25,860 bases of DNA. Source: a virus (lineage: Duplodnaviria > Heunggongvirae > Uroviricota > Caudoviricetes). The DNA lies in the IMG/VR virus record IMGVR_UViG_3300045988_049160. The stretch is one strand, 5' to 3'. Shown here one piece after another: positions 4,329-24,428 of the stretch (its first letter is position 1; each line of letters opens with the position of its first letter). The translations under genes were made by a program, and so were the position numbers. Under the pieces are notes generated by a model. That model was given only the letters and a program-made list of their open reading frames with translations. It was not told the DNA's origin and did not search any database.

Positions 4329-4340
4329 GTGACATGTCAC
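4329..4340. repeat. 12-bp perfect palindrome GTGACATGTCAC (copy 1 of 4), overlapping the lipoprotein stop codon and adjacent to the terminator
   Basis: Exact sequence; identical copies at 21728-21739, 22120-22131 and 24386-24397. Confidence 0.8.
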
Positions 4341-4717
4341 GCAACGCAATTATTACCGCGCCATGTAACATTTTTAATAATCTTATCAGCACCAAACTCA
4401 ACGTAAACAGAGCAACTGAAATGGAGTGTATAACCGCCATCAGTTGTTGCGTATGTGTTTGAATATATAGTATTACCAATTAGATTAGACGTAGTATTAT
4501 ACGTTGTGGTTTGTGGTACGTTATAACTACCAGAGCTTGAGTAAACATACACTCTGTTTCCATCTGGAGATGTAAGCTCTCCCTGAGGATACCCCCACTG
4601 CTGAACCATTGCGTCTATACTCTGCCCGCGCCACGTAAGCATATTTCTTTCAAACTGTGCAGCTGACTGGCATCCAACGAGAAGCATAAATCCAAAAATC
4701 AAAAATACTTTTCTCAT
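4337..4717 (-). CDS. Lipoprotein (lipobox LLVGC), Thr/Ser/Tyr-rich mature domain; function unknown (candidate exclusion or lysis-associated lipoprotein)
   Basis: Internal ATG at 4717 gives MRKVFLIFGFMLLVGCQSA..., a classic signal peptide plus lipobox Cys; last gene before the operon terminator. Confidence 0.55.
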   Translation of the reverse strand: MRKVFLIFGFMLLVGCQSAAQFERNMLTWRGQSIDAMVQQWGYPQGELTSPDGNRVYVYSSSGSYNVPQTTTYNTTSNLIGNTIYSNTYATTDGGYTLHFSCSVYVEFGADKIIKNVTWRGNNCVA

Positions 4718-4802
4718 AATTACCCCTATCATGGAAAAACAGCACCAATCCACAAATTAACTAGTTATTTTATTATTCTTCCGAACAATACAATTCCGAA
4801 TA

Positions 4803-4925
4803 CTACAAAGCCGAACCATGCCGCTGCACGCAACAGAGATTCCAATTGAAACCCATTTTTATCAAAATGTATGAATAGCATAAAAACGCTGCACATATTA
4901 GTACAATAAAAGTTATTTGAACCAT
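4803..4925 (-). CDS. Small hydrophobic peptide (about 40 aa, one predicted transmembrane helix); alternative to the 62-aa ORF called in another frame
   Basis: ATG at 4925 (and 4928) is preceded by AAAAGGAG; translation MVQITFIVLICAAFLCYSYILIKMGFNWNLCCVQRHGSAL. The track ORF 4765..4953 has no RBS for any of its Met codons. Confidence 0.3.
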   Translation of the reverse strand: MVQITFIVLICAAFLCYSYILIKMGFNWNLCCVQRHGSAL

Positions 4926-4936
4926 CATATCTCCTT

Positions 4937-7411
4937 TTATTGCGGAGTGACATCCTGTGGTCGCCACCAGTATGTCTGGTTAAACTCTTTCTTCGAACGT
5001 TGCTCCATTTTACGCAAATAGCCTGGTGAAAAATACTCCTGCATCTGGTTAAAGATCATGTGATCGAGAGCCGCCTTCAAGTACCAGAGATTCGCACCAG
5101 GCATCAAACCTTTCCCCAGCTTCACCAGATCACCACCAGTCTGCTCACTCTTCCCTTCCACAGCATTTAACGGTATGCCCTGAGCAATCTTCACTACGTC
5201 ATCAACCAGACCAGCTACCGGGCCAAGCATCGACGCCAGCGCGCCGCTTCCGTACCTAGTGTGATCTGACAATAAAAAGTCACCGTAAAGGCCAAGACCA
5301 CCACCTTTCAGTAGAGCACCAAGCCAGAATTTTGCGGCATCTTCTCCTGTCATCTCTCGAGGATTACGACCAGACGCAAGGTCGTTAAGTTGCTGCGACA
5401 AAGCGCCAAGAATGGTCGTACTGGCAATAAACGTCGCAATATATGCCGCACGCCCACCAGCAGACGGCATACCCATAGCGCGTGACCAGTGACGCATAAC
5501 AACCGAGATAGGGAACGATTTAAACAGGAAAACACTTCTCGTTAATTCACCTTTCCATGTTCCACGCTGAATACCAGAACCGGTTATCAGTTGCTCACGT
5601 GCTCCCGGTGTAATAACAGCCATATCAACTTCTTCAGTTACGGCACCGAGCAGTTTACGCATTGCCTCAAATTTCACGCGTTCAGGCTCACCAAGATGTT
5701 TAACTGCTGAATCAGGGATACGCATAATGCTTTCCGGTGTCAGCATCGTATTATTACCGTTCCCCCAGTCCTCCTGTTTCGCCAGCTTCCATACGCTCCA
5801 GTCTGTGTCAGTAATCCCTTTGCTTTTCAGGATACGAAAATCAGAGTCATCGAGGCTACGAAGGTCTGGTGTCCGTGACACTACTTCTCCCAGGCTTCCC
5901 ATCATGGTTACGCCATAGGCGCGCTTGTGCGCATCTGACCATGCTGTAAGCCCACTGGCACGCATTACCGCCGTTGCCGCCCAACGAGACACTGACGGCC
6001 CCATATTATCCATCGCCCAGCGGTTAACGCTGCCAAGTAGAGATTCCATCGCCAGACCAGCGCGGCGCGCCCGCGCAAGTTCTGTACGGTTCGTTGGGTC
6101 CATAGCTTCAAGCTGGTTGCGGAATAACTGGTTCATTGGAAGGTTGGTAACCTTCGCAGACAGATACATGGTTCCAAGATCAGAGAACGATGACAGCAAC
6201 GCGGATCCGAGTCTGCTGGCAACCAGCCAGTTGCGGATATTGTCAGACCATCGCGCGATGTGCGGATTCGCTACAGGCTGTGTCTTTCCGGAAATAAAGT
6301 TGTACAGATTCTCTGTGTTGTTCGCCAGCCGCTCGACTTTACCGGTTTTACTCGGGTTAGCTGTTGCCGTTTCTGCCTTCACCTGATCAAGAAGAGAGCG
6401 GAAAACATGATCGGGGTTTGGGCCATATGTTTCCACCAGTGCAATATCTTTACTGATACCTTCCAGGTGACCGACCATGATTTCCCATAGAGAGCGATCG
6501 CCATAAAGTTGCTGATATTGCAGATAGGAATCTGCATCTTTGAAATGTATCTGTCGTGATGCATTACCACGGTTAGCACGTGCGCCGGAAATTCGCATTC
6601 CGGTATCAGTAAGCTTATTCAGCCCACCAGTAGCGATCGTGTTATAAGCCTCTCCAAGAAATGAAGACAACTCGGCATCGTTCATCAGTTGTCCATCGGC
6701 TCGGATATAATATTTGCGATCCAGCTTACCTATAACATCGCTAACCCACTTATCCTTTGATACTGCCCCAACCTTTTCCATAGAATGATGTTGAGGGATC
6801 CCCCAGTTTTCGAGATAGCCAATGTCCCCACCAGCATCATTAAACCGGCGGCGCAGCAGCTCTGTAACTTCTCTCCACGCCTTAGCACCGTTTCTTGCTT
6901 TAGCATTGCCAGTATTTTGCCCCCGCATTTCATATACCAGGTCACGTACGCCCGCTTCATCTTCAAACAGACCAAAAAAGCGAGGATCAACTGCTTCGAA
7001 TGCCTCCTGCAATTGACTCAATGCATAATCACGGGTGGCTTTTGTTCTGGATTCAACAGAGAGGAAATTAGATTTACCGTCTGCATTAAAAGCTATAGTA
7101 CGGTTAAGAGCGCCAAGTTTCCCATCAGCCCCTTGATAGCTATTGATAAATTTATCCAATCTCTGACGCGCGGCTATAGTGAGAGCCACACGACGTTTCT
7201 TTAATGCCGCTTCTCGCTGTAATTCTTCAGATGCCAATTGTGCTGCTCGATATAGCCGCTCTGATTCGGAAAGTTGTCGCCACGACATAGGGTCATCACG
7301 AGCAATGGAGCGCATATTTCGATAAATGCGGTCTTCAATGTTCTGTATTTCTCGCGCCGTTAACATGCGCTGCGCCGCCTGCTGAACCGCTTGTATACAT
7401 TCCTGTCTCAT
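4937..7411 (-). CDS. Internal virion / DNA-ejection protein, C-terminal region resembling T7 gp16 (internal virion protein D)
   Basis: 824-aa ORF, translationally coupled to the upstream gene; C-terminal segment VFLFKSFPISVVMRHW...ALSQQLNDL...GPVAGLVDDV resembles the remembered T7 gp16 C-terminus (VMQFKSFTIKSLNSKF...). Confidence 0.5.
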   Translation of the reverse strand: MRQECIQAVQQAAQRMLTAREIQNIEDRIYRNMRSIARDDPMSWRQLSESERLYRAAQLASEELQREAALKKRRVALTIAARQRLDKFINSYQGADGKLGALNRTIAFNADGKSNFLSVESRTKATRDYALSQLQEAFEAVDPRFFGLFEDEAGVRDLVYEMRGQNTGNAKARNGAKAWREVTELLRRRFNDAGGDIGYLENWGIPQHHSMEKVGAVSKDKWVSDVIGKLDRKYYIRADGQLMNDAELSSFLGEAYNTIATGGLNKLTDTGMRISGARANRGNASRQIHFKDADSYLQYQQLYGDRSLWEIMVGHLEGISKDIALVETYGPNPDHVFRSLLDQVKAETATANPSKTGKVERLANNTENLYNFISGKTQPVANPHIARWSDNIRNWLVASRLGSALLSSFSDLGTMYLSAKVTNLPMNQLFRNQLEAMDPTNRTELARARRAGLAMESLLGSVNRWAMDNMGPSVSRWAATAVMRASGLTAWSDAHKRAYGVTMMGSLGEVVSRTPDLRSLDDSDFRILKSKGITDTDWSVWKLAKQEDWGNGNNTMLTPESIMRIPDSAVKHLGEPERVKFEAMRKLLGAVTEEVDMAVITPGAREQLITGSGIQRGTWKGELTRSVFLFKSFPISVVMRHWSRAMGMPSAGGRAAYIATFIASTTILGALSQQLNDLASGRNPREMTGEDAAKFWLGALLKGGGLGLYGDFLLSDHTRYGSGALASMLGPVAGLVDDVVKIAQGIPLNAVEGKSEQTGGDLVKLGKGLMPGANLWYLKAALDHMIFNQMQEYFSPGYLRKMEQRSKKEFNQTYWWRPQDVTPQ

Positions 7412-7416
7412 TTAAT

Positions 7417-9219
7417 TTAACCTCTCAAGAAACACGCCACAGCGACATCAAACAGGCTGGAATCCTGTATTGCCTGCTCACTTTCCCTGTTCGCTTCATC
7501 CAGTGCTTCACGCGCACTGCGCGATTGTGGATTACCATCATCATCCAGCACGGTGATTATCATGTCCGGAGATTCAAGCAGCGAGTCTTCAGCTATACGC
7601 AGATCAATATCTCCTGCCGGATCTGCCATCATTTTTTGTTCTGTCTGTTGCAATATCTTACCGGGCTCAAAAGGAGCTACTTCGTCTGGCGTCCTGACCT
7701 CTGCTGTTTTATAGAATGAAACAGCCTGAGTATTAAGTTCACTTTCAGCCTGCTGTCTCCGTGCCAGTTCTGCTCGAGCTTCAAAAAACTGACCGCCAGG
7801 CTCATGCGGTGCCAACGCGTTACGAGAAAATTCCAGGCGTTCTTGTGCCTGCCGGATTCGTTGGTCAATATCGCGAAGTCTGGCCTGTTTATCTGATCGA
7901 GCACGAGATAAAGCCTTACCGCTACCGGCTGGATCTTCTGCAAGAATTTGTGCGCGCTGTTCAGTGAGATTTTCAATAATTCGTTGGCTATTAGCGATTT
8001 CAGACTGGTAAACCTGTCTATCGCCACGCGGCAAAAGCTGCGCGGCCTGTTCTTCAAGCAACCGATTTTCTATAGCGCGCGCCGTTACTCCATCATCTAC
8101 AGATGACAGAGCCTCATTAACTGCCTGAGACAGCAGACTCTTGCGTCCAGGAATTTCACTGAAAGATGCAGACTCAACAATGCTGGCAACGTCTACAGGT
8201 CTCCCCTGGCTAACATCAGACATGGCTTTTCGCAGAGCCTGAATGTGCGAATTACGCGAAAGCACGTTGATCGGCACGCCGGGAGCAATATCAATTTCAG
8301 CATGATGAGCGGCATTCGCCGCCAGTGCAGCATCGATATCAACTGGTGAAAAATTTGGTGCGCTTGTAGACTCGCCGCGAGAGTTAATAAATCTGCCGAC
8401 ACCACCAAACGCCACCCCAAGAACAGCATCAATAGCAATTGCCTGTCGATCCAACACATCATACTGGTTAGCCATTTCGCTATAGCCACCATCACGAAGC
8501 GTTTTTGCAGTAAGCCCACGCTGTGCCATACCGAACGCAATATTTGTACCTGCGGCATAGGCAATATCTGGCGTTGCACGTACTGCTGTTGCTGCGGCGC
8601 GTCGCACTGAACTTTCACCCGTCCGCGCAAGCTGAGCCGCCACACCTTCCGCCAGCGCACCACCAGCACGTAACCCGAGGCTCATAGGGATCAGTGTTCC
8701 GGCACCAGCAGTAATACCCTGCACTAATCCCGCTTCCTGCGCCGTCCTGAAATCAACACCCTGTGCTGTCAGCCGTTCAAACTCAGAAAAACCCTGTAGA
8801 GAAGTTACCGCCGCAGCACCTCCGACCGGACCACCGAGCGTTGTACCGACAACAGCCTGCCCGCCCATATCGAACAACCCATAAAGAACCTGCCCGGCGG
8901 TTCCGGTTGTCGCGGCATCAGGCGTCAGCCGCTTAACCTGCTGTTCTGCTAGTTTTCTCTGCTCGGCAATGTATGAAACTGAAGTATCATTGAGCGAGGT
9001 GTTTTCGTTAATAAACTGAGCAATCGGGGATACGATTTTATCCATCCCTGCCCATAGCAACTGATCTGGCTTTGCCACCAGCCCGGAGTACAAACCAGAC
9101 AATGCCGCTCCTACAGCATTGTCGAAAAAACCAACATCGCTGTTAAAGCCCGCTGGATTTGATGCTGCTTCGTCAAGCTGCTGATTCTGGTTTACTGGAT
9201 TAAGGCCAAAGTAACTCAT
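7417..9219 (-). CDS. Internal virion / ejection protein (Gly/Ala-rich, 600 aa)
   Basis: ATG overlaps the upstream stop (ATGA); position between the gp14-like and gp16-like genes; Gly/Ala-rich composition. Confidence 0.4.
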   Translation of the reverse strand: MSYFGLNPVNQNQQLDEAASNPAGFNSDVGFFDNAVGAALSGLYSGLVAKPDQLLWAGMDKIVSPIAQFINENTSLNDTSVSYIAEQRKLAEQQVKRLTPDAATTGTAGQVLYGLFDMGGQAVVGTTLGGPVGGAAAVTSLQGFSEFERLTAQGVDFRTAQEAGLVQGITAGAGTLIPMSLGLRAGGALAEGVAAQLARTGESSVRRAAATAVRATPDIAYAAGTNIAFGMAQRGLTAKTLRDGGYSEMANQYDVLDRQAIAIDAVLGVAFGGVGRFINSRGESTSAPNFSPVDIDAALAANAAHHAEIDIAPGVPINVLSRNSHIQALRKAMSDVSQGRPVDVASIVESASFSEIPGRKSLLSQAVNEALSSVDDGVTARAIENRLLEEQAAQLLPRGDRQVYQSEIANSQRIIENLTEQRAQILAEDPAGSGKALSRARSDKQARLRDIDQRIRQAQERLEFSRNALAPHEPGGQFFEARAELARRQQAESELNTQAVSFYKTAEVRTPDEVAPFEPGKILQQTEQKMMADPAGDIDLRIAEDSLLESPDMIITVLDDDGNPQSRSAREALDEANRESEQAIQDSSLFDVAVACFLRG

Positions 9220-11729
9220 TGCGGAATATCTCCGGAGAATCTCTGACGCTTCTGTGTCAGATCAAGAACAACGGGAGAACCATCATCTTTTAGCAGATAA
9301 CCAGTACCAAGTTTCACCAGGTACTGACTATCGCCGTAACTTTGCAAACCATACTGACCAGGCGGTGTTTTTATCCCTGTGCCAACAACTTGTTCATTCC
9401 AAGCCTGATTAACCTGCTTATCGAATTGCTCTGCAGACATTCCCCACGGCAAAAGAACATTCCCCATTCCGTTATAGTCATGCACGCCACCTGTAGCTAC
9501 GTTAACAGCCTGTTTCCAGATATCATTGTCAATTTCGCCTGATACCACGCCTTTTTTCGCCATCACACCAGCGTAATAGTCCTTTGCGATCTCGTATGCC
9601 ATTGATGCCCCCTGAGCATCACCAGCAAATGCATCCTTAACCATGTCAGAAAACTCAAGGCGGAGATCAGCATCTTTAGGCATCGGAATACCTTTCGCGT
9701 CATCAGTACCTTTACGAGCCGCCGCGCCAGCAAGAATTGTCTGCGCAGCGGTTTCAGGAGACACGGAAACATCCGGATTAAACCAGTTTTTTTCTGCCAA
9801 AATACCACCTGGCTTATCCATCAGTATCCCGGCAACGGCAGCAGATGGAGCGTTGGCACTGATCTGCTGTAGTGCTGACATATACACCTGCCCACCACCA
9901 GTGCTCTGCCTGATGGTATCGAGATATGCTGCCTGTTGGGAAACGGGCGCATCACGAAAGAAAACACCGATCTGATTGGCCTCGTCTTTGGAAAAGAACG
10001 TCAGTGGAGTGCCATATGACTTAGCAAGGTCACTGACCTGAGCAGCACGCAAGGCAACGCTCTGTCCAAAGTTATCCTTATTGCTCATGTCGATAGGCTT
10101 TGTCTGTCCTGCGGCAAGAGAGAACTGTACAGGATCAGCCTGTCGCTGCTTTATCACCTGACTTGCAGCCGACACAACGTTGTCATAAAGAGCGGCTCGT
10201 GCCGCATAACCCTCCCCTGTCTCACCAGTATCCGGGCGTAATTGCTCAACATATGCTGTAATGCTGCTTGTCGGCATGTTGCGGAAAGAGCCTATATACT
10301 GTCCGGCGATTTGCGTATTTCTGAACTCGGTATATCGCAGGTTTCCTTCTCTTACTCCATAAGCTGCAATAAAATCAGCCTCACCAGGTGGGTTAGGAAA
10401 TTCAACGCCACGCATATACGCAGCTGTCGCATCGCGAACCTGGCTGTCAATCATCGTTTTATATTCAGCCTGCTGCTGCCGACGCAGTTGATCCGCCTGT
10501 CGCATAAAACTTGCCTGCGCCTCAGGAGATGCCGCATCGAATGCTGCATTACCGGTATAGCGTTTGGTGTTGGTTGGAATTGTTGATAAACCAAGTGCTG
10601 CACTGACACCAGCAGTTAACTGCTGATCACTGTATGGCTGGCTACCGTTCTCATGATGGATAATGGCTGCACAAAGCGCCTTCAGGGTATCAGGATTAGA
10701 TGCATCGAGAGGCTCATCAGCAGAAACGCCAAGTTGTTCGCACACTGCTTTGATATACGACATAGTGTCATTTTTATCAGCAGGCGGTGCCCAGCGATTA
10801 ATTATCTCGCTGACGGTATCAATACCCTGCCTCTGATACGACATCAGGTTCCGCCCTAATGCACGAATCCCGTGTTCAGGTGTTTCGAATTTAGCAAATC
10901 GACCATCATCACCGGTCTGGCCTACCCACGGATTAGTTTTGCTGTATTCGAGATTTCCTGGGTTATTGTTGCGTATGCCACGGGCACGCTCGGAAGAGTC
11001 ACTATCTGCTACAGCACGGCGAGCTCCAGCAGCAGTATCACTTAACTCGCCATTACTTTGGATGAATGCGGTCGCATTGTTTGCCGACCACTGGGACAAT
11101 GCAGCATCAGCAACCTTCTCTTTAAACTCGATTTTCTTGGCCTGGATTTGCTCGTTGCTCCAGCCATGTGCAACACCGTACTCCTCAATTTGCTGGAAAG
11201 TTTGTTTGTTAGCCAATACGTATGCGGCGTTGTCGCCATACAATACTGCGGCATTTTTACCATTGTTCAGCAGTGTCGCCTGAAACTGGCCTTCTTCGTA
11301 GGCATTAATTTGCCCTATCTCGTGTCGCCCGGCCTGCGTAGTGAACTGAATGCGCTGCTGCTGCGCCTGCTGCATGAAAGCATTACGAGCCTGTTCATCC
11401 GGCAGCGACATAGCCAGTTGTTCGACCTGAGCATCAAACTGCTGCGTATACTCATGGCCTTTTCCAATAGCATTTTTCCCTTTCAGGTTAAGCAATCCTG
11501 TTTCAGGATTATTCAGCAGATCGCTGCTTATCTGACTGAGGTTAAGAGATGCCTCCTGAGCCAGAGCAATATTGGCACGCTGTTTTGCCTGCCCCAAAAC
11601 ATCAATTGCCTCTGTCCCTGCCCGAACAAAAGCATCACCAATACCTTGCTGAGAAAACGTCTGCAAGCCTGCTGACTGAACTCCACGACTCTCAACCTGA
11701 CGTCCGGATACTGTTGGTACGACTGGCAT
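9216..11729 (-). CDS. Internal virion protein (about 837 aa) with central conserved domain containing the motif RNNNPGNLEY...RWAPP (possible enzymatic, perhaps cell-wall-active, domain)
   Basis: Start re-assigned to ATG at 11729 (Met26 of the track ORF), which overlaps the upstream TAA by one base and has a GGAGGA RBS; the track start would overlap the upstream gene by 75 nt. Confidence 0.5.
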   Translation of the reverse strand: MPVVPTVSGRQVESRGVQSAGLQTFSQQGIGDAFVRAGTEAIDVLGQAKQRANIALAQEASLNLSQISSDLLNNPETGLLNLKGKNAIGKGHEYTQQFDAQVEQLAMSLPDEQARNAFMQQAQQQRIQFTTQAGRHEIGQINAYEEGQFQATLLNNGKNAAVLYGDNAAYVLANKQTFQQIEEYGVAHGWSNEQIQAKKIEFKEKVADAALSQWSANNATAFIQSNGELSDTAAGARRAVADSDSSERARGIRNNNPGNLEYSKTNPWVGQTGDDGRFAKFETPEHGIRALGRNLMSYQRQGIDTVSEIINRWAPPADKNDTMSYIKAVCEQLGVSADEPLDASNPDTLKALCAAIIHHENGSQPYSDQQLTAGVSAALGLSTIPTNTKRYTGNAAFDAASPEAQASFMRQADQLRRQQQAEYKTMIDSQVRDATAAYMRGVEFPNPPGEADFIAAYGVREGNLRYTEFRNTQIAGQYIGSFRNMPTSSITAYVEQLRPDTGETGEGYAARAALYDNVVSAASQVIKQRQADPVQFSLAAGQTKPIDMSNKDNFGQSVALRAAQVSDLAKSYGTPLTFFSKDEANQIGVFFRDAPVSQQAAYLDTIRQSTGGGQVYMSALQQISANAPSAAVAGILMDKPGGILAEKNWFNPDVSVSPETAAQTILAGAAARKGTDDAKGIPMPKDADLRLEFSDMVKDAFAGDAQGASMAYEIAKDYYAGVMAKKGVVSGEIDNDIWKQAVNVATGGVHDYNGMGNVLLPWGMSAEQFDKQVNQAWNEQVVGTGIKTPPGQYGLQSYGDSQYLVKLGTGYLLKDDGSPVVLDLTQKRQRFSGDIPQ

Positions 11730-15848: not shown

Positions 15849-15870
15849 CCCCTTGTCTGATTCGCGAGGC

Positions 15871-16215: not shown

Positions 16216-16216
16216 C

Positions 16217-16654
16217 TTAACCAGTTACTTTTGAGCGGATCGGGTACGGCGTATTGGCATCAACATCCAGACTGATACCCGCAGTGAATTTGCCAGCCGT
16301 TAGTGGGCCAGTTGCGACGGAGTAGTTAACACGCAGATATCGCTGAACACCGGCAGGCACCTTTGCAGAAACAACTCGTTTACCTGCTGTCAGGGCGGTC
16401 TTTGCCAGTGCGCCACTATCATAAATAGTGGTCCATGAGCTGTTATTCTCACTCGTCTGCAACTGGATGTTTACAGTTGCATCACCGCTTGCCGCGGCGG
16501 CTGCGTTAACCAGCGCCCAAAACTCAAGCGGGTAACCCACGCCGATATCACGACGTTTTCCGTCAATTGGACCGAGATCGATTACGTCAGTAGAAGCCGC
16601 GGTATTCGTAACCGCCTGAGCTTCGGAGAACATCAACAGTTTGTCGGTGATCAT
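16217..16654 (-). CDS. Putative capsid decoration / minor capsid protein (145 aa)
   Basis: Immediately downstream of the major capsid gene; Ala/Thr/Gly-rich; call is positional only. Confidence 0.3.
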   Translation of the reverse strand: MITDKLLMFSEAQAVTNTAASTDVIDLGPIDGKRRDIGVGYPLEFWALVNAAAAASGDATVNIQLQTSENNSSWTTIYDSGALAKTALTAGKRVVSAKVPAGVQRYLRVNYSVATGPLTAGKFTAGISLDVDANTPYPIRSKVTG

Positions 16655-16705
16655 CTTCTTTCTCCATTAGTGGGTCTGTTACGACCCACAGGTTAATAAC
16701 AGGCG

Positions 16706-17698: not shown

Positions 17699-17706
17699 TT
17701 CCTCTC

Positions 17707-18408: not shown

Positions 18409-18701
18409 TCCTGTTCACTGGCCTCTTTGGCCATCTTCAAATACTGTTCAGGGCAATGCGCCATAACGCGCTGAAACAGTTCCAGCGCCAGATTGCGTTG
18501 CCCCTCATTAAATGCCATTGCCATAGCGTCCATCGGTGAGATAGCGGAAAACACACGGCCTTTCTCCAGCACCGACCAGACAACGCGACGCCCCTGTTCA
18601 CTGCTCATGACAAAGCAAATGTCATCAATTTCACGCTGTGCCATGTCACGTTGCTTACGGGCGTTTTCTTCTTTCAGTTGATCGTCTTCGTAATCTGTCA
18701 T
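18405..18701 (-). CDS. Hypothetical head-assembly-associated protein (98 aa)
   Basis: Translationally coupled between portal and scaffold. Confidence 0.4.
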   Translation of the reverse strand: MTDYEDDQLKEENARKQRDMAQREIDDICFVMSSEQGRRVVWSVLEKGRVFSAISPMDAMAMAFNEGQRNLALELFQRVMAHCPEQYLKMAKEASEQE

Positions 18702-20377
18702 TGTGATTGCCCACCCTGACCACTAACTGCATTCGCCATAGCTGACAAAACACTCGGATCCGAAGTTTTAGCTTCGCTTAGCGTCTTGGCACCCTGTGCC
18801 GCCGCCATCCCCATCGCCATCATTTGTTGCTGCTGTTGTTGCTGTGCCCGTTGCTGGCGAGCCTGCTCAACCTGTTCCTGCGGAACAATGACGGTTGGAG
18901 ACACTCCGGACATATCAGCGAATGCATCGATCGCCTGATCAACGTTGAGTTTGTCGAGAGCTTCTGGTTTCGCTTGCGCAAGTTGACCAATGAAGTTGAC
19001 CGTAGACGCCAGACTGGACAGGCCGATAGACTTCTGCGCCTGAGCCATGACGGAAATGTATTCGACCTTCAGGGGCATACCTTCCATCGCGTCAGGCGGT
19101 GGCGGCAGCATGTTTTTACGCACCATCATCGAGAAAGCGCGGTCAATGAGAGGATTAAGACATTCGTCGTTCAGACGCTCCAGAACCGGCCCCAACATCA
19201 GAAGTTTTTCTTCTTTCATTTCGATCACCGCTTCAACAGGCATCGAGCGGGTATTGATGTTCTGCAACATCATGAACAGATCGACAAAGTAGGCGCTGTT
19301 AATGATTTGACGGGTGTCCTGAATGTCTGCCACCAAATCTGCTGTACTGGGGTTAACCAGATAAGCAGGCCTGAAACCATCCTGACCAGTAATCTGATCG
19401 ATATACGTGATGTCGCCAGGAAGAAGGGAGGCACGCTGATTCTTGAGGGAAGTCGGAGCAACCATCGGCGGATTGGTGGCTTTATCAATCAACTGCGACT
19501 TGCGCTTCTGGAGAAGCTGCAATGCCTTAACAGGTCCAAGCGCCAGCATACCCGGGCATGATGATCCATAAACATCTTCGCCGTTAACTTCCCAGCGCGG
19601 AGCCATAATTGGAAACTCATCGAATCCGGACTCACGCAACAACTTGTCGTTATCGCCACCAACCTCGTAATAAACCGATTTGAATGGCTTGTTCTTGCTA
19701 TCCAGCTTCGATGTATCGCGGTCAATGTTCGGGTAAACCGAATGCATCACTTCAATCCACTTCTCGTAGGTTCCGCTTTCCCACATGCTTTTTACGGATT
19801 CGCTGACGTTATTTAGCCCGAACTCCTGAACAAGCTGACGAACAGTCATAGAGAACTTGCGAAAACAGGTGTCCACACTGCCACGAGGTGAGTTAGCCAG
19901 GTAGTAACTGCCTATCGGGAATGGCATTGTGCGAATGATGTCCTCGTCATCCTCCAGCACTGCCATTGCACCAGTGCTGTATGTGCCGAGGCTTCCGTAT
20001 AACTGCGGCAGCGACTGATAGAGATTCGACTTATTGAACATATCGTTCATGCGGTTCTGCACCGCCTCAAGCCACAACTTAACAGGGCCATAATCCATCA
20101 TTTCAGGATCTGGCGTAGCCAGGCGAAACCACGGACGCGCGGGGCTTGTGATGCCTGACATCATGCCGCTGGCGAGAGTGCGCGCCGCCATAGTCCCGGT
20201 CGAATCAATAATGCGTGTATTGCGTCGATCGTTACGGTTGACCTCAGAAGTCAGAAAGCGGGAACCACGCGGGTTGATGTAATCACTCAACTCGCGCCAG
20301 TGCGGCTCGAACGACTGACGCTCGCTTTCAAGTTGTGCGAACTGTTTGTTCAATCGCTCTTTAGTTGTTTCCGCCAT
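18698..20377 (-). CDS. Portal (head-to-tail connector) protein, T7 gp8-like
   Basis: 559 aa; N-terminal region LNKQFAQLESERQSFEPHWRELSDYINP...TGTMAARTLASGMMSGITSPARPWFRL parallels remembered T7 gp8 (YERLKNDRAPYETRAQNCAQY...VGARGLNNLASKLMLALFPMQTWMRL); Gln-rich C-terminus QQRAQQQQQQQMMAMGMAAAQG also gp8-like. Confidence 0.75.
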   Translation of the reverse strand: MAETTKERLNKQFAQLESERQSFEPHWRELSDYINPRGSRFLTSEVNRNDRRNTRIIDSTGTMAARTLASGMMSGITSPARPWFRLATPDPEMMDYGPVKLWLEAVQNRMNDMFNKSNLYQSLPQLYGSLGTYSTGAMAVLEDDEDIIRTMPFPIGSYYLANSPRGSVDTCFRKFSMTVRQLVQEFGLNNVSESVKSMWESGTYEKWIEVMHSVYPNIDRDTSKLDSKNKPFKSVYYEVGGDNDKLLRESGFDEFPIMAPRWEVNGEDVYGSSCPGMLALGPVKALQLLQKRKSQLIDKATNPPMVAPTSLKNQRASLLPGDITYIDQITGQDGFRPAYLVNPSTADLVADIQDTRQIINSAYFVDLFMMLQNINTRSMPVEAVIEMKEEKLLMLGPVLERLNDECLNPLIDRAFSMMVRKNMLPPPPDAMEGMPLKVEYISVMAQAQKSIGLSSLASTVNFIGQLAQAKPEALDKLNVDQAIDAFADMSGVSPTVIVPQEQVEQARQQRAQQQQQQQMMAMGMAAAQGAKTLSEAKTSDPSVLSAMANAVSGQGGQSQ

Positions 20378-20391
20378 TTCAATGACTCCGG

Positions 20392-20598
20392 TTACTGACC
20401 AAGCAGCGTTTTACCGCTGGTATTAGCGGTTGATGTGTCGCCCTGAGAACCGGTAAGCAGCGTAGAACTACGACCAGCAGCAGCGCGACGGCGACGAGTT
20501 TCTTCGTCGCGGGCATCAACAACGGCGGCATCCTGCTCCTGTGGTGCTGCCTGAACTTCTGGTGTTGCAGGCACTGATGGTGAGCTACCCATGCACAT
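20392..20598 (-). CDS. Small Ser/Thr/Arg-rich virion protein, T7 gp6.7-like (68 aa)
   Basis: Starts MCMGSSPSVPAT..., basic and Ser/Thr-rich, directly upstream of portal; GGAG RBS; chosen over the overlapping 20379..20618 frame. Confidence 0.35.
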   Translation of the reverse strand: MCMGSSPSVPATPEVQAAPQEQDAAVVDARDEETRRRRAAAGRSSTLLTGSQGDTSTANTSGKTLLGQ

Positions 20599-20687
20599 AT
20601 CAATGACTCCGTACGCAATTAAATTATTACCAATTTAACCACATATGATTTATTTATCGTAGGTAGTTGACATTTAACGCACAAATT

Positions 20688-20704
20688 ATTACCTTTCAGG
20701 TAAC
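20688..20704. promoter_or_regulatory. Putative operator ATTACC-TTTCA-GGTAAC (copy 5)
   Basis: About 90 bp upstream of the gp6.7-like start, in the region where the structural operon must restart after the plus-strand moron insertion. Confidence 0.35.
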
Positions 20705-21025
20705 CAAAGAGTTCATTCCGGTTACTAACCTGACTGGCTTGTCGTTAAATTGAACAGGTGGAGTGAGCTTTTATTTTGAGCAGTACGGCGTATGGCACAT
20801 GCGCCGATAGCGGTCTGGATACGTTTAAGGGGCACCCTCCCTGGCTGTGGCAAACGAACCAGGTAGCCGGAATGTGCAAGTCGAGCGGTTTTATTCCGCG
20901 CACGGGGATTCACCATCCCGGCGATTCGGTGTGACGCCTCGGAAGAGACGAGGGTACAACGATGAGAGCATTTATGGAGCCGCGACAAAGTGTGGCGCCT
21001 TAACAGGCTAAGTGCTCTCAGCGTT

Positions 21026-21102
21026 GTGGCATTAGCTCAGCTGGACAGAGCAACCGCTTTCTAAGCGGTTGGTCGCAGGTTCGAATCCTGCATGCCACGC
21101 CA
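21026..21102 (+). tRNA. tRNA-Arg (anticodon UCU)
   Basis: 77 nt with CCA; acceptor stem GTGGCAT/ATGCCAC, D-arm GCTC/GAGC, anticodon stem CCGC/GCGG with loop TTTCTAA, T-arm GCAGG-TTCGAAT-CCTGC. Related to but not identical with remembered E. coli argU. Confidence 0.85.
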
Positions 21103-21146
21103 GAATCACGCCTAAGGACCGTGATGCCAGAAGTTCCAGGGGCTTG

Positions 21147-21188
21147 GCGGTGATGGTTTCCCTTGAAGGACTATCACCGCCCTTTTTA
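21147..21188 (+). terminator. Rho-independent terminator downstream of the tRNA
   Basis: GGCGGTGAT...ATCACCGCC 9-bp stem followed by CTTTTTAC. Confidence 0.55.
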
Positions 21189-21265
21189 CAGCATGACGCC
21201 ATTGCGATGGCTTCATGCTGTAAACCAGTACAGCCACGGAAGGCATAACTCATTGCTTCCAGTTC

Positions 21266-21290
21266 GCCCGATTCGCCGGGCATTTTTTTT
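21266..21290 (+). terminator. Terminator-like hairpin plus T8 immediately 5' of gene A (GCCCG-ATTCGC-CGGGC-A-TTTTTTTT)
   Basis: GC stem and T8 run ending 10 nt before the ATG at 21301; the same cassette is duplicated before gene B. Confidence 0.4.
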
Positions 21291-21300
21291 AGGTGAGATC

Positions 21301-21723
21301 ATGAAAACAGCCGACATGCTAGCTAAATATCTAAATGAATGGCCGTGCAAATATGTACGCATTGTTCAGGGTGATGACTCAATTTTTTATGGTGTTTTTG
21401 CAGGAAATGAAATGCTTTGTGAAGCAATTCCAGGTGAGCGACTTGCCGGGTTAACGCTTAGCGATGACCATGGAATAGGAGTTACTTGCCATGACTGGAT
21501 TTCAGCGCAGAAAACTGAAATGGAAAAAGGCAATGTGTTTGATATTTCTCGCGCTGTATACGCCAAAGAAAAAAGTGATGATGATTACATGCGCGAAAAC
21601 TTATACAACATGAAGTTACAATGCCTGGCTGAAGTGCTTAGTAAAAGATCTTTACTTGATGTGGTTGGTGCTGAGCAGGACGCCAAGGCAATCAACGCCG
21701 CATTCGATAAAATAACCTTCTAA
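21301..21723 (+). CDS. Hypothetical acidic protein (140 aa), moron gene A
   Basis: ATG at 21301 preceded by AGGTGA; the track start at 21163 would run through the upstream terminators. Opposite orientation to the flanking structural genes. Confidence 0.55.
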   Translation: MKTADMLAKYLNEWPCKYVRIVQGDDSIFYGVFAGNEMLCEAIPGERLAGLTLSDDHGIGVTCHDWISAQKTEMEKGNVFDISRAVYAKEKSDDDYMRENLYNMKLQCLAEVLSKRSLLDVVGAEQDAKAINAAFDKITF

Positions 21724-21744
21724 CGCCGTGACATGTCACAATCA

Positions 21745-21771
21745 GCCCGCCGATTCGCCGGGCATTTTTTT
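21745..21771 (+). terminator. Rho-independent terminator after gene A (GCCCG...CGGGC then T7), also the leader of gene B
   Basis: Hairpin at 21745-21763 followed by T7, then AAGGTGA RBS and ATG at 21784. Confidence 0.5.
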
Positions 21772-21783
21772 AAGGTGAAAATC

Positions 21784-22116
21784 ATGAAAGAGAAGACTGC
21801 AGCTGAGCGCTATGCCGCAGCTATCAATGCCGCGATGGCGATTGTAAACCTGCGTGAAGAGATTAAAGATCTCCTTGCAATTATCCATAACAACCTGACA
21901 TGTACAGAGTTGCTTGGCGGTCAGTACAACGGTGAGGCGGTGAAGGAGGCATTTAAAAATGCCGAGGTAGGAATAATTCCAGCAAACTATGTCAAGGCTG
22001 AATGTGTGCTCCTAAAGGCACGAGTGAGTCTGCATGAAGATCCTGGTAATCTCGGTCGAACTGCAATGCGTTACGTGATAGACGAGTCGAATGCCAAACA
22101 CAATCTACCGAAATAA
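21784..22116 (+). CDS. Hypothetical protein (110 aa), moron gene B
   Basis: ATG at 21784 with AAGGTGA RBS; 5' leader almost identical to that of gene A. Confidence 0.55.
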   Translation: MKEKTAAERYAAAINAAMAIVNLREEIKDLLAIIHNNLTCTELLGGQYNGEAVKEAFKNAEVGIIPANYVKAECVLLKARVSLHEDPGNLGRTAMRYVIDESNAKHNLPK

Positions 22117-22135
22117 CACCGTGACATGTCACAAA

Positions 22136-22162
22136 CAGCCAGCCTATGAGCTGGCTTTGTTT
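22136..22162 (+). terminator. Rho-independent terminator after gene B (AGCCAGC-CTATGA-GCTGGCT then TTGTTTT)
   Basis: Perfect 7-bp stem followed by a T-rich tract. Confidence 0.6.
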
Positions 22163-22206
22163 TATCCTCACCAGAGGATATCAACGACATTATCCCCACC
22201 AGCGGA

Positions 22207-23682
22207 TTAAGCATAGGGATCGTAATCTGTGATGGCCTTGCCTTGCTGGTTCTGCTGACCGGGAATTCGCAGACGCTTAGACACAGGGAACGCAAACGTC
22301 AGCAGTAGCGCATCGCCTTTACCCGGTGAACGCCCAAGCCGCTCCTTGATATCTTCCTTCGGTTCGATAACGATTTTACCGTCCACTCGAACTTTGTACT
22401 CTGCCGCCGACAGGTCGTCTGCTGTTTCCTGGTCATCCAGCATGCCGCCCAGCCTCAGCCATGTCTTGCATGAATTGAACATCTCCCCACGCTTGTTGAG
22501 CATCTGCGGGTCAGTAGACGCGCCACCGAACGGAACAAGTTGCCATGTACGACCCCAGCCGTCACCGATTGACTTCAAACCGGTTCCGTAACCGAAGTCG
22601 ATGAACACCGCGTCAGCCTGATACTGGTCTTCAAAGTCAGCGATACGCTTCGCCATAATCAGATCGTCGGTAGTCTTGTTGCCAGTCCACAGCACCTTAC
22701 TGTGTAGCCCCTGCCGCAGGTATATCACAGCGTCATCAACGCCGGAGTATGCCGGGTCAACGCCGATTATCACCGGAGCATGTGCAACCTGCGCAGCGGT
22801 TACCACCCGTTTCATTGCCTCGTCAGTAAGACCGGTAGGGATAAACTGCAATTCAGATGCATCAGGGAATATGCCACGCACACGGATTTTAACGAAGTCG
22901 CTGTCTTCCCCGTAGTCATCAACCCATTTCTGCAACTGCTGTTTGTTAGTGCCTTCCACCGTCCGGCTGTCAATCTGCGCAGTTTTCCAGCGGTGTTTAT
23001 ATTTGCGGAAACATTCGCGAAAACGCCCGGTGTTACGTGTAGGGTTTCCGAACGCCACCCAAATAATCTCAGTGTCTTCGTCCGTAAGCGCACCCTCGGC
23101 AACTTCCCACACCAGATCCGCAATGTTCGACGCTTCATCAAACACCACGATGATGCGTTTGCGCTCGTTGTGTAGTCCGGCGAATGCCTCGGTGTTGTGC
23201 TCAGACCAGGGTATTGCGTCAGCCCGCCACCGCTTGTCGTGCCCTAGGTCATTGCTGTACATCGCGGTAGCGGTACAGGTAAACCAGTCTTTCGTGATAG
23301 CAAGGTTCGACCACTTGATAATTTCCGGCCAGGTCTTCGTTCGTAGCTGGTTGTCGGTGTTGGCGGTCACCACGACCTTACAATCCTCGCAAGTGGACAT
23401 GCCCCAGTTGATCAGCATTGAGATGAATGCGGATTTACCAATACCGTGACCAGAAGCGCGTGCCAGCATAAGCGGCTGATAGCGCGTCTCTGGATTCTGC
23501 AGGTGATCACGTATCTCTCGGAACGCATCAGCCTGCCACTGACGTGGGCCGGTGGCATGTGCCAGTTCAGTCCCCTCTTCCCCCCATGGGAACGCATAGA
23601 GGGCATAGCCAAGCGGATCGTGAGTGAACCCTGCAATATCCTCGATTAACTGCTCTTCAGGAGATAACGCTGTATCTGTCAC
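22207..23682 (-). CDS. Terminase large subunit (ATPase plus nuclease), GTG start
   Basis: 491 aa; Walker A-like ARASGHGIGKS; Walker B-like IIVVFDEAS; C-terminal nuclease-like segment VIIGVDPAYSGVDDAVIYL. GTG at 23682 overlaps the terS TGA; AGGA RBS. Confidence 0.85.
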   Translation of the reverse strand: MTDTALSPEEQLIEDIAGFTHDPLGYALYAFPWGEEGTELAHATGPRQWQADAFREIRDHLQNPETRYQPLMLARASGHGIGKSAFISMLINWGMSTCEDCKVVVTANTDNQLRTKTWPEIIKWSNLAITKDWFTCTATAMYSNDLGHDKRWRADAIPWSEHNTEAFAGLHNERKRIIVVFDEASNIADLVWEVAEGALTDEDTEIIWVAFGNPTRNTGRFRECFRKYKHRWKTAQIDSRTVEGTNKQQLQKWVDDYGEDSDFVKIRVRGIFPDASELQFIPTGLTDEAMKRVVTAAQVAHAPVIIGVDPAYSGVDDAVIYLRQGLHSKVLWTGNKTTDDLIMAKRIADFEDQYQADAVFIDFGYGTGLKSIGDGWGRTWQLVPFGGASTDPQMLNKRGEMFNSCKTWLRLGGMLDDQETADDLSAAEYKVRVDGKIVIEPKEDIKERLGRSPGKGDALLLTFAFPVSKRLRIPGQQNQQGKAITDYDPYA

Positions 23683-24275
23683 TGATTGCCATCCTGACGT
23701 TCTTTCAGTCTCTTCCTGGCTGCCGCTATGCGATCAGCAATTGTCACATTCACATTAACATCCAGGCGTTCTTTGAATGCGTTGACGTCGACGTGCTTAC
23801 CAATCAGTTCGAGGTTCTTCACCTTGTCAGGCCATTTAATTTTTTTGAGGATTGTCTCTATCGAATCCTCGTTCATGTTCATGATGGTCGATGACAGATC
23901 AAAGCCACTAAGCGTAGTGCGCCAGATTTTCGGCCACTCGCGGATTGGCTTAAGGCTCCCATCGTCGTTGAGGATGTCGATCACGTCCATCTGGTCGATC
24001 TCCACCAGGCGCATGAGAACGTAATCAGCACTGACGCGCATTCGTTTGTTGCGCTCTTCCATCAGCTCGGCAATCCGTTTTTGAATGCGTTCATCGCGCA
24101 TCATGAGACTGGCTTTAACTGCCGCTGTATTTGGGGAGAATCCTGCGTTAATCGCTGCCTGAGTCTGGTTTTCAGGCGTTTTGATGTATGACTGGCAATA
24201 AGCCTCCTGCATTGCTGTTAGTGGCTTAAATTGCGTTGATTTGCGTTTATAGGTTTTAGGTTCAGCAGGCATCAT
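23679..24275 (-). CDS. Terminase small subunit (putative); start at 24275 or 24272 rather than 24353
   Basis: Directly upstream of and coupled to terL; helix-turn-helix-like segment TQAAINAGFSPNTAAVKASLMMRDERIQKRIAEL typical of small terminases. The track start would place a terminator hairpin and low-complexity repeats inside the coding sequence. Confidence 0.55.
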   Translation of the reverse strand: MMPAEPKTYKRKSTQFKPLTAMQEAYCQSYIKTPENQTQAAINAGFSPNTAAVKASLMMRDERIQKRIAELMEERNKRMRVSADYVLMRLVEIDQMDVIDILNDDGSLKPIREWPKIWRTTLSGFDLSSTIMNMNEDSIETILKKIKWPDKVKNLELIGKHVDVNAFKERLDVNVNVTIADRIAAARKRLKERQDGNQ

Positions 24276-24325
24276 AACCACCGTGGTAATAGTTACCGTT
24301 GTGGTAATAGTACCATGCAAAATAA

Positions 24326-24345
24326 AGCCGCCATAGTTGGCGGCA
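24326..24345 (-). terminator. Rho-independent terminator (GCCGCC-AACTAT-GGCGGC then TTTATTTT on the minus strand) between the regulatory gene cluster and terS
   Basis: 6-bp GC stem; the minus strand continues with a T-rich tract. Confidence 0.5.
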
Positions 24346-24428
24346 GTATTCAAAACCCATCAAATTCATCATGCATAATCTACTCGTGACATGTCACGCT
24401 ATTAATTTCGTTTCATGCCAGCCTTTAG

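Follow-up and report, generated by a model that had tools for sequence, protein, structure and literature searches.

A conserved GTGAC-NN-GTCAC palindrome in phiV10/epsilon15-like phages is probably the DNA site of the phage-encoded PHROG 536 protein

MatP and MukBEF occur in one clade of bacteria, comprising Enterobacterales, Vibrio and Aeromonas. In the unrelated partition systems ParB/parS and SopB/sopC, the site typically lies next to or inside the gene of its binding protein. Proteins bound to DNA can also act as roadblocks, and experiments with EcoRI Q111 and with lac repressor place the stalled polymerase about 14 nt upstream of the protein. The matS sites have the 13-bp consensus GTGAC[AG]N[TC]GTCAC with a 3-nt spacer, occur about once per 49 kb in Ter, and are reportedly absent from 500 prophages, where they are avoided (PMC3603311). 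The stoperators of mycobacteriophage L5, bound by the helix-turn-helix immunity repressor gp71, are more than 20 asymmetric, orientation-dependent 13-mers. They are repeated outside promoters at gene boundaries and are thought to block elongating polymerase.

We analyzed a window of 25,860 nt from a phiV10/epsilon15-like podophage (IMG/VR record IMGVR_UViG_3300045988_049160). As the earlier note had reported, the perfect 12-bp palindrome GTGACATGTCAC occurs in this window in four exact copies. Shuffling gives an expectation of 0.01 copies, and none of 100 shuffles reached four. The third copy had been placed one base off, at 22120-22131 instead of 22121-22132. The copies, with their genes and terminators, are as follows.

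4304-4328, minus strand: intrinsic terminator of copy 1, AGGCCGCTTTCGCGGCCT then TGTTTTT, with its hairpin (4328-4311) directly after the palindrome
4329-4340, no strand assigned: palindrome copy 1, GTGACATGTCAC; closes the late structural operon and holds the TGA (4337-4339) of the 138-aa ORF
4337-4753, minus strand: 138-aa ORF, PHROG 3716, function unknown, the last late-operon gene here
21301-21723, plus strand: moron A, 140 aa, PHROG 4846, TAA at 21721-21723
21728-21739, no strand assigned: palindrome copy 2, 4 nt past the moron A TAA; an extra copy, in a duplicated stop-palindrome-terminator unit
21745-21771, plus strand: intrinsic terminator of copy 2, GCCCG..CGGGC then a T7 run, hairpin 21745-21763
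21784-22116, plus strand: moron B, 110 aa, PHROG 27507, in the PhiV10p03 / Sf6 gp66-like slot, TAA at 22114-22116
22121-22132, no strand assigned: palindrome copy 3, 4 nt past the moron B TAA, at the convergent junction of moron B and the large terminase gene
22137-22163, plus strand: intrinsic terminator of copy 3, AGCCAGCCTATGAGCTGGCT then TTGTTTT, hairpin 22137-22156
24319-24344, minus strand: hairpin GCCGCCAACTATGGCGGC then TTTATTTT, between copy 4 and the small terminase gene
24386-24397, no strand assigned: palindrome copy 4, overlapping the original TGA (24394-24396, minus strand) of the PHROG 536 gene
24394-24731, minus strand: PHROG 536 gene, encoding the putative binding protein (PhiV10p55 / epsilon15 gp49 family), frameshifted in the window

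All four adjacent hairpins have the GC-rich stem and T-run of an intrinsic (rho-independent) terminator on the transcribed strand, and the palindrome belongs to none of the four stems. Copies 2 and 3 are separated from the hairpin by 4-5 nt, while copy 4 lies 41 nt upstream of its hairpin (24344-24327, minus strand) and T-run. The terminator at copy 1 also serves the convergent plus-strand unit that ends at 4305. Its hairpin is kept in relatives, in which other genes occupy the slot of the 138-aa ORF; the hairpin at 24319-24344 is likewise conserved in epsilon15, SPN1S and Tyrion. Moron A is flanked by duplicated units (a 50-nt repeat with 78% identity and a 29-nt repeat with 97% identity), and the 3' part of terminator 2 with the Shine-Dalgarno region has a 97% identical copy at 21268-21296. 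The gene once described as a 101-aa regulator-like gene stopping 32 nt upstream of copy 4 is in fact a 112-aa gene, frameshifted by a 1-nt deletion in an A-run (24502-24504). In intact relatives its stop is the TGA inside the palindrome. A promoter match was sought at copies 1-3 and none was found; copy 4 has only a weak promoter-like match (GTGACA, 18 nt, CATGAT).

CRP recognizes TGTGA-N6-TCACA, FNR TTGAT-N4-ATCAA and LexA CTGT-N8-ACAG. Read directly from the sequence, the palindrome is none of these, in agreement with the first assessment: the gap from TGA to TCA is 4 nt instead of 6, and CTGT..ACAG is absent. The single match with one mismatch in the window (18638) lies within a coding region and differs among relatives, and we regard it as chance.

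The relatives compared were 5-6 genomes of about 76-98% DNA identity. Three homologous positions carry the 12-mer with 100% conservation in these genomes, against only 53-76% identity in its 30-nt flanks. Homologues of copy 1 are found in phiV10 (19493), epsilon15 (19517), Tyrion (20377), SPN1S (19662) and BUCT711 (18526), where they stand behind differing upstream genes, and homologues of copy 3 in phiV10 (2262), epsilon15 (2142), Tyrion (2702) and SPN1S (2174). At copy 3, the moron-side flank takes 13 forms across 80 related IMG/VR loci and the terminator side is constant. The palindrome is present at the stop of the PHROG 536 gene in 78 of 80 related IMG/VR loci; none of the 80 has three palindrome copies in the 10 kb either side of that gene. 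Because the palindrome is fully conserved at homologous positions across divergent relatives, its function, as opposed to chance recurrence, is supported by sequence comparison. The earlier idea of a functional pre-terminator element therefore stands as regards function, while the pre-terminator position fails as a general rule. The order of stop codon, palindrome and terminator holds in the phiV10/epsilon15 group and breaks down in Klebsiella phage BUCT711, ZF40, N15/phiKO2 and Vibrio phages, where the same or a variant site lies within coding regions or just before a ribosome-binding site.

The spacing between the half-sites is equally constrained. Among all GTGAC-Nx-GTCAC sequences with x = 0-8 in 1.35 Mb, 120 had a 2-nt spacer and the other spacings totalled 4; in 0.91 Mb of N15-like loci the corresponding numbers were 108 and 1. 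The arms GTGAC/GTCAC are invariant, with no compensatory change, and the central dinucleotide is lineage specific (AT; TG/CA; GC). For instance, 103 of 107 N15-like sites have a TG/CA centre, the exceptions being three CC and one GG. So strict a 2-nt geometry is typical of a site for a dimeric DNA-binding protein. All sites having the 2-nt spacer, we rejected the palindrome as a matS site; the window, 6 full genomes and 2.26 Mb of related loci contain no matS-type N3 site.

What the earlier note had overlooked is that one palindrome copy forms the 3' end of the gene for its probable binding protein. The stop of this gene (p55) lies inside the palindrome in phiV10, epsilon15, Tyrion, SPN1S and BUCT711, as in the 78 IMG/VR loci. 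Linkage extends to unrelated phage types, whose homologues are 35-65% identical: GTGAC-NN-GTCAC lies at or in the homologue's own gene in ZF40, N15/phiKO2 and P2-like Yersinia and Vibrio phages, each with 1-3 further copies. In ZF40 the exact site follows the homologue's stop by 2 nt; the site at the homologue gene is GTGACGCGTCAC in a Yersinia P2-like phage, GTGACTGGTCAC in N15, phiKO2 and PhiR46_1, and TTGTGACAGGTCACAA in Vibrio 10N.237. A more distant lineage has the exact site within the homologue's own coding region. A scan for CGTGACATGTCACG, made without selecting for the PHROG 536 gene, found a homologue in 27 of 120 loci (within a locus of roughly 9 kb), with the site at or in the homologue gene for 20 of 28 ORF matches. 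Other sites are intragenic (ZF40 gp08 and cII-like gene, repA of N15 and phiKO2, structural genes of BUCT711), and no recognisable promoters were found at sites of the family.

The PHROG 536 gene is the last gene of the early-right operon and encodes an uncharacterised 112-aa protein. It is predicted to consist of a basic, Arg-rich N-terminal helix, a ribbon-helix-helix (RHH) domain and a Cys4 zinc knuckle. An AlphaFold2 model built from a 45-sequence alignment (pLDDT 82.7) has the strand-helix-helix fold of the RHH superfamily, and a symmetric 12-bp site is consistent with an RHH dimer of this predicted kind inserting its two-stranded sheet in the major groove. Searches with 14 diverse members gave no Pfam match at E <= 10, MatP (PF06303 / PF17414) included, and the family has no Pfam or NCBIfam model. 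At least 720 homologues were found at E <= 0.001, all from phages or prophages of Enterobacterales, Vibrio and Aeromonas, with members in phiV10/epsilon15-like, N15-like, P2-like, ZF40-like and Vibrio phages.

Given site conservation, gene-site linkage, strict 2-nt spacing and the predicted RHH fold, we consider it likely that a dimer of the phage's own PHROG 536 protein recognises GTGAC-NN-GTCAC (here GTGACATGTCAC) as its cognate site on double-stranded DNA. The options listed earlier had included a protein site, and it is the best supported of them. Against this core reading, some family members lack the site, the palindrome occurs at the stops of other genes, and in the window all four sites are intact although the PHROG 536 gene is frameshifted. 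The palindrome being symmetric, arguments from strand also cannot tell DNA from RNA recognition, and the Arg-rich N-terminal helix could serve as an RNA-binding arm. For instance, Yersinia phage 42.18 has a family member with no site at its gene, Vibrio K303 has the site 229-238 nt downstream of the family gene rather than at it, and the site at the gene of an Aeromonas member is degenerate. The exact palindrome also overlaps the stops of two other genes, a lambda gpM-like tail gene and a scaffold-like one, in contigs that may or may not encode the protein.

With no site at a recognisable promoter and many inside genes, the pattern fits barrier or architectural sites better than initiation control. 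We tentatively propose, with some doubt, that the bound dimer acts as a transcription elongation barrier or boundary element and not as a promoter operator; cognate site and barrier taken together are, in our judgement, evenly poised between right and wrong. Binding, action at the DNA level and barrier function are all inferred from co-occurrence and the predicted fold. Under the cognate-site reading, one site always lies at or in the 3' end of the PHROG 536 gene, with 1-3 more dispersed in the genome. A dimer bound at the gene's own stop codon would halt RNA polymerase about 14 nt short of the site, with the stop not yet transcribed, which would provide negative feedback on the PHROG 536 gene and lessen the early transcription that runs into the terminase (late) genes. 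The remaining two conserved positions are convergent junctions; there the dimer would strengthen the hairpin that both units share, block transcription from the side without a T-run and cap the variable morons immediately upstream. In passing, the stop-palindrome-terminator units might offer short homologies for moron exchange. Speaking against a barrier, it looks redundant just upstream of an efficient intrinsic terminator.

By analogy, the L5 stoperators come closest to this proposed mechanism. They differ in that the phage palindrome is perfect and symmetric, has 1-4 copies and has as its putative binder an early lytic-cycle RHH protein. The operators of the epsilon15 immunity repressor (TTACC-N6-GGTAA) are unlike the palindrome, and we rejected it as an L5-type stoperator by class because it is symmetric and not a repressor operator sequence. 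With RHH operators (P22 Arc/Mnt, CopG, the MetJ met-box, the omega heptads WATCACW), the system shares the predicted fold, a basic N-terminal arm and a short symmetric site of fixed centre-to-centre geometry. RHH operators overlap promoters, however, whereas the palindrome is a single isolated 12-mer away from promoters, without tandem sub-sites, and the phage protein has an extra C-terminal zinc knuckle.

Other readings assign the palindrome to RNA polymerase read-through, to RNA or to recombination. In lambda Q/qut and N/nut, too, the gene of a small basic regulator stands directly upstream of a site, a terminator and late genes, and the order here mirrors lambda 'Q, qut, tR', late genes'. 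The protein, at the DNA site or an RNA hairpin, would let polymerase pass the terminator, so that early-right transcription reaches the terminase genes once the protein has accumulated and the late operon runs on to the tailspike and lysis genes. A terminator hairpin does lie 0-5 nt beyond three of the four window sites, the annotations of phiV10, epsilon15, Tyrion, SPN1S and BUCT711 contain no Q-like gene, and an Arg-rich N-terminal helix is also a feature of N proteins. We nevertheless find such a termination gate unlikely. The family-bearing phages ZF40, N15 and phiKO2 have a separate Q-like antiterminator, and their sites, which have no terminator, lie inside genes or immediately precede a ribosome-binding site; read-through at copy 3 would yield only antisense RNA to the terminase genes; and the epsilon15 record annotates repressor operators before each late unit, suggesting independent promoters. 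A Q/qut module was rejected because copies 1-3 lack the promoter and sigma-dependent pause that Q needs and the protein has no Q-family match, and an N/nut (boxB) module because the RNA hairpin is weak and the sites lie at operon ends or inside genes. The same hairpin (4 bp, 4-nt loop, -1.2 kcal/mol) equals shuffled sequences (z = -0.03), which weakens the earlier suggestion of an RNA processing or stability signal. A 3'-UTR element of this sort, or a small-RNA seed, read by a host factor or a phage protein, would fit the place directly before the terminator hairpin in the window and close relatives. The stop codon overlap could couple translation and RNA folding, and several RNase III sites are annotated at other places in the epsilon15 record. 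Yet many family sites lie within ORFs, no Rfam family matches the element, and arms without compensatory change at a fixed 2-nt spacing fit DNA half-sites better; we regard an RNA element as quite improbable. That the palindrome is solely a linker of moron exchange seems very improbable. The earlier notion of a moron-acquisition junction holds in so far as variable genes precede a constant palindrome-terminator unit and moron A lies between duplicated units, probably as a by-product only: conservation of the 12-mer far exceeds that of the adjoining terminator and flanks, Tyrion keeps the 12-mer though its copy 3 terminator has decayed, and it is tied to one specific gene in unrelated phage types and is also intragenic.

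The remaining readings start from the half-sites GTGAC/GTCAC, which are identical to those of matS. Temperate phages of MatP/MukBEF hosts may carry a private, spacer-shifted counterpart of MatP/matS, in which an RHH-zinc protein on 1-4 architectural sites organises or insulates phage DNA, with transcription secondary. Bridged sites would form loops matching transcription units, or SMC extruders (MukBEF) and other translocases would be stalled or unloaded, and, through the 1-bp difference in spacer, the system would stay free of cross-talk with host MatP. Like matS, the sites are few and scattered and lie outside promoters and in part within genes, the predicted RHH dimer and the host clade are shared, and a site beside or inside the binder's own gene, with extra copies dispersed, recalls ParB/parS and SopB/sopC. 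The latter differ in fold, the phage system has no partner ATPase and its hosts are mostly integrating phages. Differences from MatP/matS are also plain: the site has 12 bp and a 2-nt spacer without exception (matS, 13 bp and a 3-nt RNY spacer), the protein is phage-encoded with one site tied to its own gene, a Cys4 knuckle replaces the four-helix bundle and coiled coil of MatP, and sites number 3-4 per 40 kb, a density well above that in Ter. Homology to MatP is not demonstrated by sequence (hhalign probability 0.1%, with the Pfam result above), identity over 5-bp half-sites can be chance, and the narrow host range may reflect only the limits of sequence search. We thus see a phage-private analogue as an outside candidate. 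Host MatP itself might instead bind the sites and so anchor phage DNA, whether prophage or replicating, at the Ter macrodomain or divisome machinery. This reading shares the half-site argument and is highly unlikely, as every site has the 2-nt spacer and none the matS spacing, true matS is reported absent from and avoided in prophages (PMC3603311), and the linkage to a phage gene is left without explanation.

The probable cognate site of the PHROG 536 protein would give this widespread family a testable DNA target and a first functional handle. It would also represent a conserved class of non-promoter phage sites at the boundaries of transcription units and moron slots. Should the sites prove to be barriers, they would reveal how convergent units are insulated in small temperate phages and how lysogenic-conversion cassettes are silenced or capped during lytic growth. 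The identity with matS half-sites raises the question of whether phages copy the host chromosome-organisation code or stay orthogonal to it. In Uetakevirus prophages, the motif marks moron insertion slots and the 3' boundaries of genes, which is of use for annotation.

The 12-mer GTGACATGTCAC, a palindrome of the form GTGAC-NN-GTCAC, is present in four exact copies across the 25.9-kb window (starts 4329, 21728, 22121 and 24386). By chance 0.01 copies are expected, and none of 100 dinucleotide-preserving shuffles reached four. The sole one-mismatch match, at 18638, lies within a coding region and is variable among relatives. An earlier note on this DNA had reported the four exact copies; we confirm them, with the third coordinate corrected by one base. 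The local anatomy it described (stop codon, palindrome, hairpin plus T-run) was borne out at every site, numbered here by coordinate:

Site 1: includes the TGA stop codon of a 138-aa ORF on the minus strand, with a hairpin and T-run immediately adjoining
Sites 2 and 3: 4 nt past a TAA, with a hairpin and T-run 4-5 nt further on
Site 4: hairpin and T-run 41 nt beyond

The window derives from a phiV10/epsilon15-like podophage of the genus Uetakevirus and is reversed in orientation relative to the phiV10 record. Its main units are:

Minus strand: small terminase, large terminase, portal and the remaining late operon
21026-22163, plus strand: tRNA and two morons (A and B), between the terminase and portal units
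21026-21099, plus strand: tRNA gene (Rfam, 71 bits), tRNA-Arg in the annotation of related phages

We compared the window with epsilon15, SPN1S, Tyrion, phiV10 and Klebsiella phage BUCT711 (~76-98% DNA identity to it). These phages carry the exact 12-mer at homologous positions:

Position (a), site 4 of the window: end of the last early-right gene, with the terminase genes just downstream
Position (b), site 3: convergent junction between a leftward moron and the large terminase gene; absent in BUCT711
Position (c), site 1: end of the late structural operon, likewise a convergent junction

Across the compared genomes the 12-mer is 100% identical, and the 30-nt flanks on each side are 53-76% identical. 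Different phages have different genes upstream of (b) and (c). The terminator at (b) has decayed in Tyrion, where the palindrome is intact. Of 80 IMG/VR relatives, the site is present at (a) in 78; at (b), the flank on the moron side comes in 13 versions and the one on the terminator side does not vary. Site 2, the extra copy, is part of a duplicated 50-nt stop-palindrome-terminator unit (21721-21770 and 22114-22163, 78% identity). There is also a 29-nt repeat of the terminator and Shine-Dalgarno region (21268-21296 and 21750-21778, 97% identity), and both direct repeats bracket moron A. These duplicated units around moron A indicate that its cassette was inserted by short-homology recombination within them.

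To characterize the site geometry, we counted GTGAC-Nx-GTCAC for x = 0-8. Uetakevirus-like loci (1.35 Mb) contained 120 sites with x = 2, four with x = 5 and none with other spacings, and N15-like loci (0.91 Mb) contained 108 with x = 2, one with x = 1 and none with other spacings. The window and six complete genomes have x = 2 only. The arms are invariant and the central dinucleotide is lineage-specific: AT in the window lineage, GC in a Yersinia phage, and, at 103 of 107 N15-like sites, TG or the complementary CA (three others have CC and one GG). Symmetric duplex-DNA sites recognised by a dimer typically show such a pattern; the arms would be contacted by conserved parts of the protein and the centre by variable ones.

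A 112-aa gene, PhiV10p55 in phiV10 and gp49 in epsilon15, ends within site (a), its stop codon being the TGA of GTGAC. It belongs to PHROG 536, which is labelled 'transcriptional regulator'. Pfam and NCBIfam models were sought for this family and none was found. In the window the gene is present as follows:

24394-24731, minus strand: regulator gene of the PhiV10p55 family, with one A lost from the A-run at 24502-24504

The run is A3 in the window versus A4 in phiV10 and one IMG/VR relative. This 1-nt deletion shifts the frame and removes the C-terminal zinc-knuckle part, and it stems either from decay of the prophage or from a sequencing error in the homopolymer. Because of the lost A, the '101-aa gene' of the earlier note is in fact a frameshifted regulator copy, whose original stop lies inside palindrome 4.

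The site also accompanies the gene in phages of unrelated types. For instance, the homologue in Pectobacterium myophage ZF40 (65% identity) has the exact palindrome 2 nt past its stop. The stop lies inside GTGACGCGTCAC in a P2-like Yersinia phage (42%), inside GTGACTGGTCAC in N15, phiKO2 and PhiR46_1 (~35%), and inside TTGTGACAGGTCACAA in Vibrio phage 10N.237. In a more distant lineage the exact palindrome falls within the coding sequence of the homologue itself. The site is 229-238 nt downstream of the gene in Vibrio K303, degenerate at an Aeromonas homologue, and was not found at the homologue of Yersinia phage 42.18. We also scanned IMG/VR for the 14-mer CGTGACATGTCACG without selecting for the gene (loci of ~9 kb on average). 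Among the matches listed, 27 of 120 loci encode a PHROG 536 homologue, and 20 of the 28 homologue ORFs have the site at or inside the gene. The family members found are all from Enterobacterales, Vibrio or Aeromonas, which together form the clade with MatP. The pairing of the palindrome with a PHROG 536 gene is the most informative fact about the element. No description of this pairing was found in the searchable literature; the 12-mer itself had no literature match, and neither the ZX5 paper nor a search on SPC32H gave anything relevant. In the epsilon15 GenBank record, terminators and sites for the repressor, IHF and RNase III are annotated, and the palindrome is not.

Additional copies lie elsewhere in these genomes. 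ZF40 has two within genes (gp08 and the cII-like gp12), N15 and phiKO2 have one within repA, an intergenic hairpin holds a third copy in phiKO2 and other members, and BUCT711 has two within late structural genes. In Vibrio K303-like phages, copies lie ~238 nt and ~2.9 kb downstream of the gene and, in one relative, ~9.9 kb upstream of it, one of them directly before a ribosome-binding site. No recognisable promoter coincides with the extra copies in ZF40, N15, phiKO2, BUCT711 or the Vibrio phages. Because copies outside the phiV10/epsilon15 group are not pre-terminator, the rule that the palindrome always stands between a stop and a terminator is specific to one lineage. The interpretation in the earlier note is thus right in part: the palindrome is functional, and a protein site is the most probable reading of it, but the pre-terminator rule does not hold generally.

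A shallow-alignment AF2 model of the regulator was poor (pLDDT 61.5). With an alignment of 45 sequences from Enterobacterales and Aeromonas, the model reached pLDDT 82.7 and pTM 0.60, and the predicted fold is of the RHH type:

Residues 5-19: basic helix
20-29: extended segment
30-42 and 52-74: helices
79-99: Cys4 knuckle, followed by the last helix

The regulator sequence had no match in the PDB, and a Foldseek search against viral structures returned nothing useful.

We propose that the regulator protein would bind the palindrome as duplex DNA. More tentatively, we favor a bound site that would act as a transcription-elongation barrier or boundary element, because the sites are never at promoters, because a site at or in the 3' end of the protein's own gene permits an autoregulatory stall, and because the other two conserved Uetakevirus sites are at convergent junctions. 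RNA polymerase stalls ~14 nt before a protein roadblock. Given that distance, polymerase would be stopped at the regulator's own 3' end before the stop codon is transcribed, and such a stall could make the gene autoregulatory and restrict the entry of early transcription into the terminase genes. At (b) and (c) the palindrome lies on the side of the shared hairpin that lacks a T-run for the opposing transcript. Against a barrier, a position just before an efficient terminator looks redundant.

A Q/N-like termination gate is a rival reading that we consider unlikely. A MatP-like architectural system seems about equally unlikely. The half-sites are the same as those of E. coli matS, the site of MatP, with the consensus GTGAC[AG]N[TC]GTCAC (quoted in PMC3603311). 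matS differs in being 13 bp long with a 3-nt spacer, compared with the 2-nt spacer of the phage site. An hhalign profile comparison of the regulator with MatP was negative (probability 0.1%), the regulator family had no Pfam MatP match even at E <= 10, and a protein search with a MatP query retrieved near-identical E. coli MatP only. Because the profile and Pfam comparisons were negative, we do not claim membership; the resemblance is described as functional, and a distant relationship as possible. Binding by host MatP itself, for which the shared half-sites would speak, is very improbable; according to PMC3603311, 500 prophages lack true matS, which is avoided in them.

An RNA 3'-UTR signal, which placement after stop codons could suggest, is weakened because the palindrome hairpin is marginal (-1.2 kcal/mol, z = -0.03) and the arms are invariant, and we hold it to be quite improbable. 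Rfam matches in the window were only C4, isrK and tRNA, all away from the palindrome, and the few rare site variants gave a mixed G-U versus A-C pattern as to RNA or DNA selection. Least probable, together with host MatP, is a pure recombination linker; the repeats around moron A would speak for it, and the closer conservation of the 12-mer than of its flanks, with its retention in Tyrion, against it.

Three further roles were considered and rejected. A terminase cut or genome end was raised by two records: that of Tyrion breaks precisely at the dyad (GTGACA|TGTCAC), and that of phiV10 ends at GTGA. It was rejected because Tyrion is circularly permuted and terminally redundant (PMC5754475) and phiV10 simply ends at the p55 stop codon. 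A general promoter -35 role (GTGACA resembling TTGACA) was rejected, as only site 4 has a rightly spaced -10-like hexamer. As for a repressor operator, the operators annotated in epsilon15 differ in sequence (TTACC-N6-GGTAA).

The motif also occurs in other contexts in IMG/VR. In other phage types (loci L186 (4999), L203 (3288) and L172 (11811); loci L225 (1068), L208 (10351) and L212 (289)), unrelated genes have their TGA stop inside the exact palindrome; they encode a lambda gpM-like tail protein (113 aa) and a scaffold-like protein (~280 aa). Next comes a terminator or the ribosome-binding site of the following gene. No PHROG 536 homologue was found within these short loci, which do not cover the remaining contig, and the phage collection held no complete relatives of either context. 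Dense GTGACA/TGTCAC-like arrays, with many half-sites within 100 nt, occur in both high- and low-GC contigs (L177, L163/L188, L176, L190, L197-L199, L160 and L154/L179) and look like a different, iteron-like use of the half-site by other elements. In L165, L171, L187, L173 and L222 the 12-mer codes for C-V-T-C-H-G-K-G, the DnaJ-type CxxCxGxG zinc-finger motif; wider scans therefore include chance matches. In BUCT711 (locus L150, 363-431) a gene for a 109-aa protein, which by eye looked UmuD/S24-like, is inserted between the regulator and terminase genes; a perfect LexA box (TACTGTATATTTAAACAGTA) precedes it, and the -35-like hexamer of its promoter is 6 nt from the palindrome.

Elsewhere in the window, ATTACC-N5/6-GGTAA repeats lie directly upstream of the small terminase gene (24283-24320) and of the gp3/portal unit (20685-20705). 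Because they match what the epsilon15 record annotates as repressor operators, they suggest that the immunity repressor may control each late unit directly. Matches to isrK (2204-2280, plus strand, 74.7 bits) and C4 antisense RNA (2299-2386, plus strand, 78.6 bits), both above the Rfam gathering score, lie directly upstream of a 245-aa plus-strand ORF (2390-3127) in the antirepressor region; the pair suggests a P1/P7-type antisense immunity module. Finally, the non-coding stretch 20740-21000 separates the tRNA from the gp3 promoter region. Its sequence is conserved in epsilon15, with part of the counterpart annotated as an RNase III site, and it may be a structured RNA.
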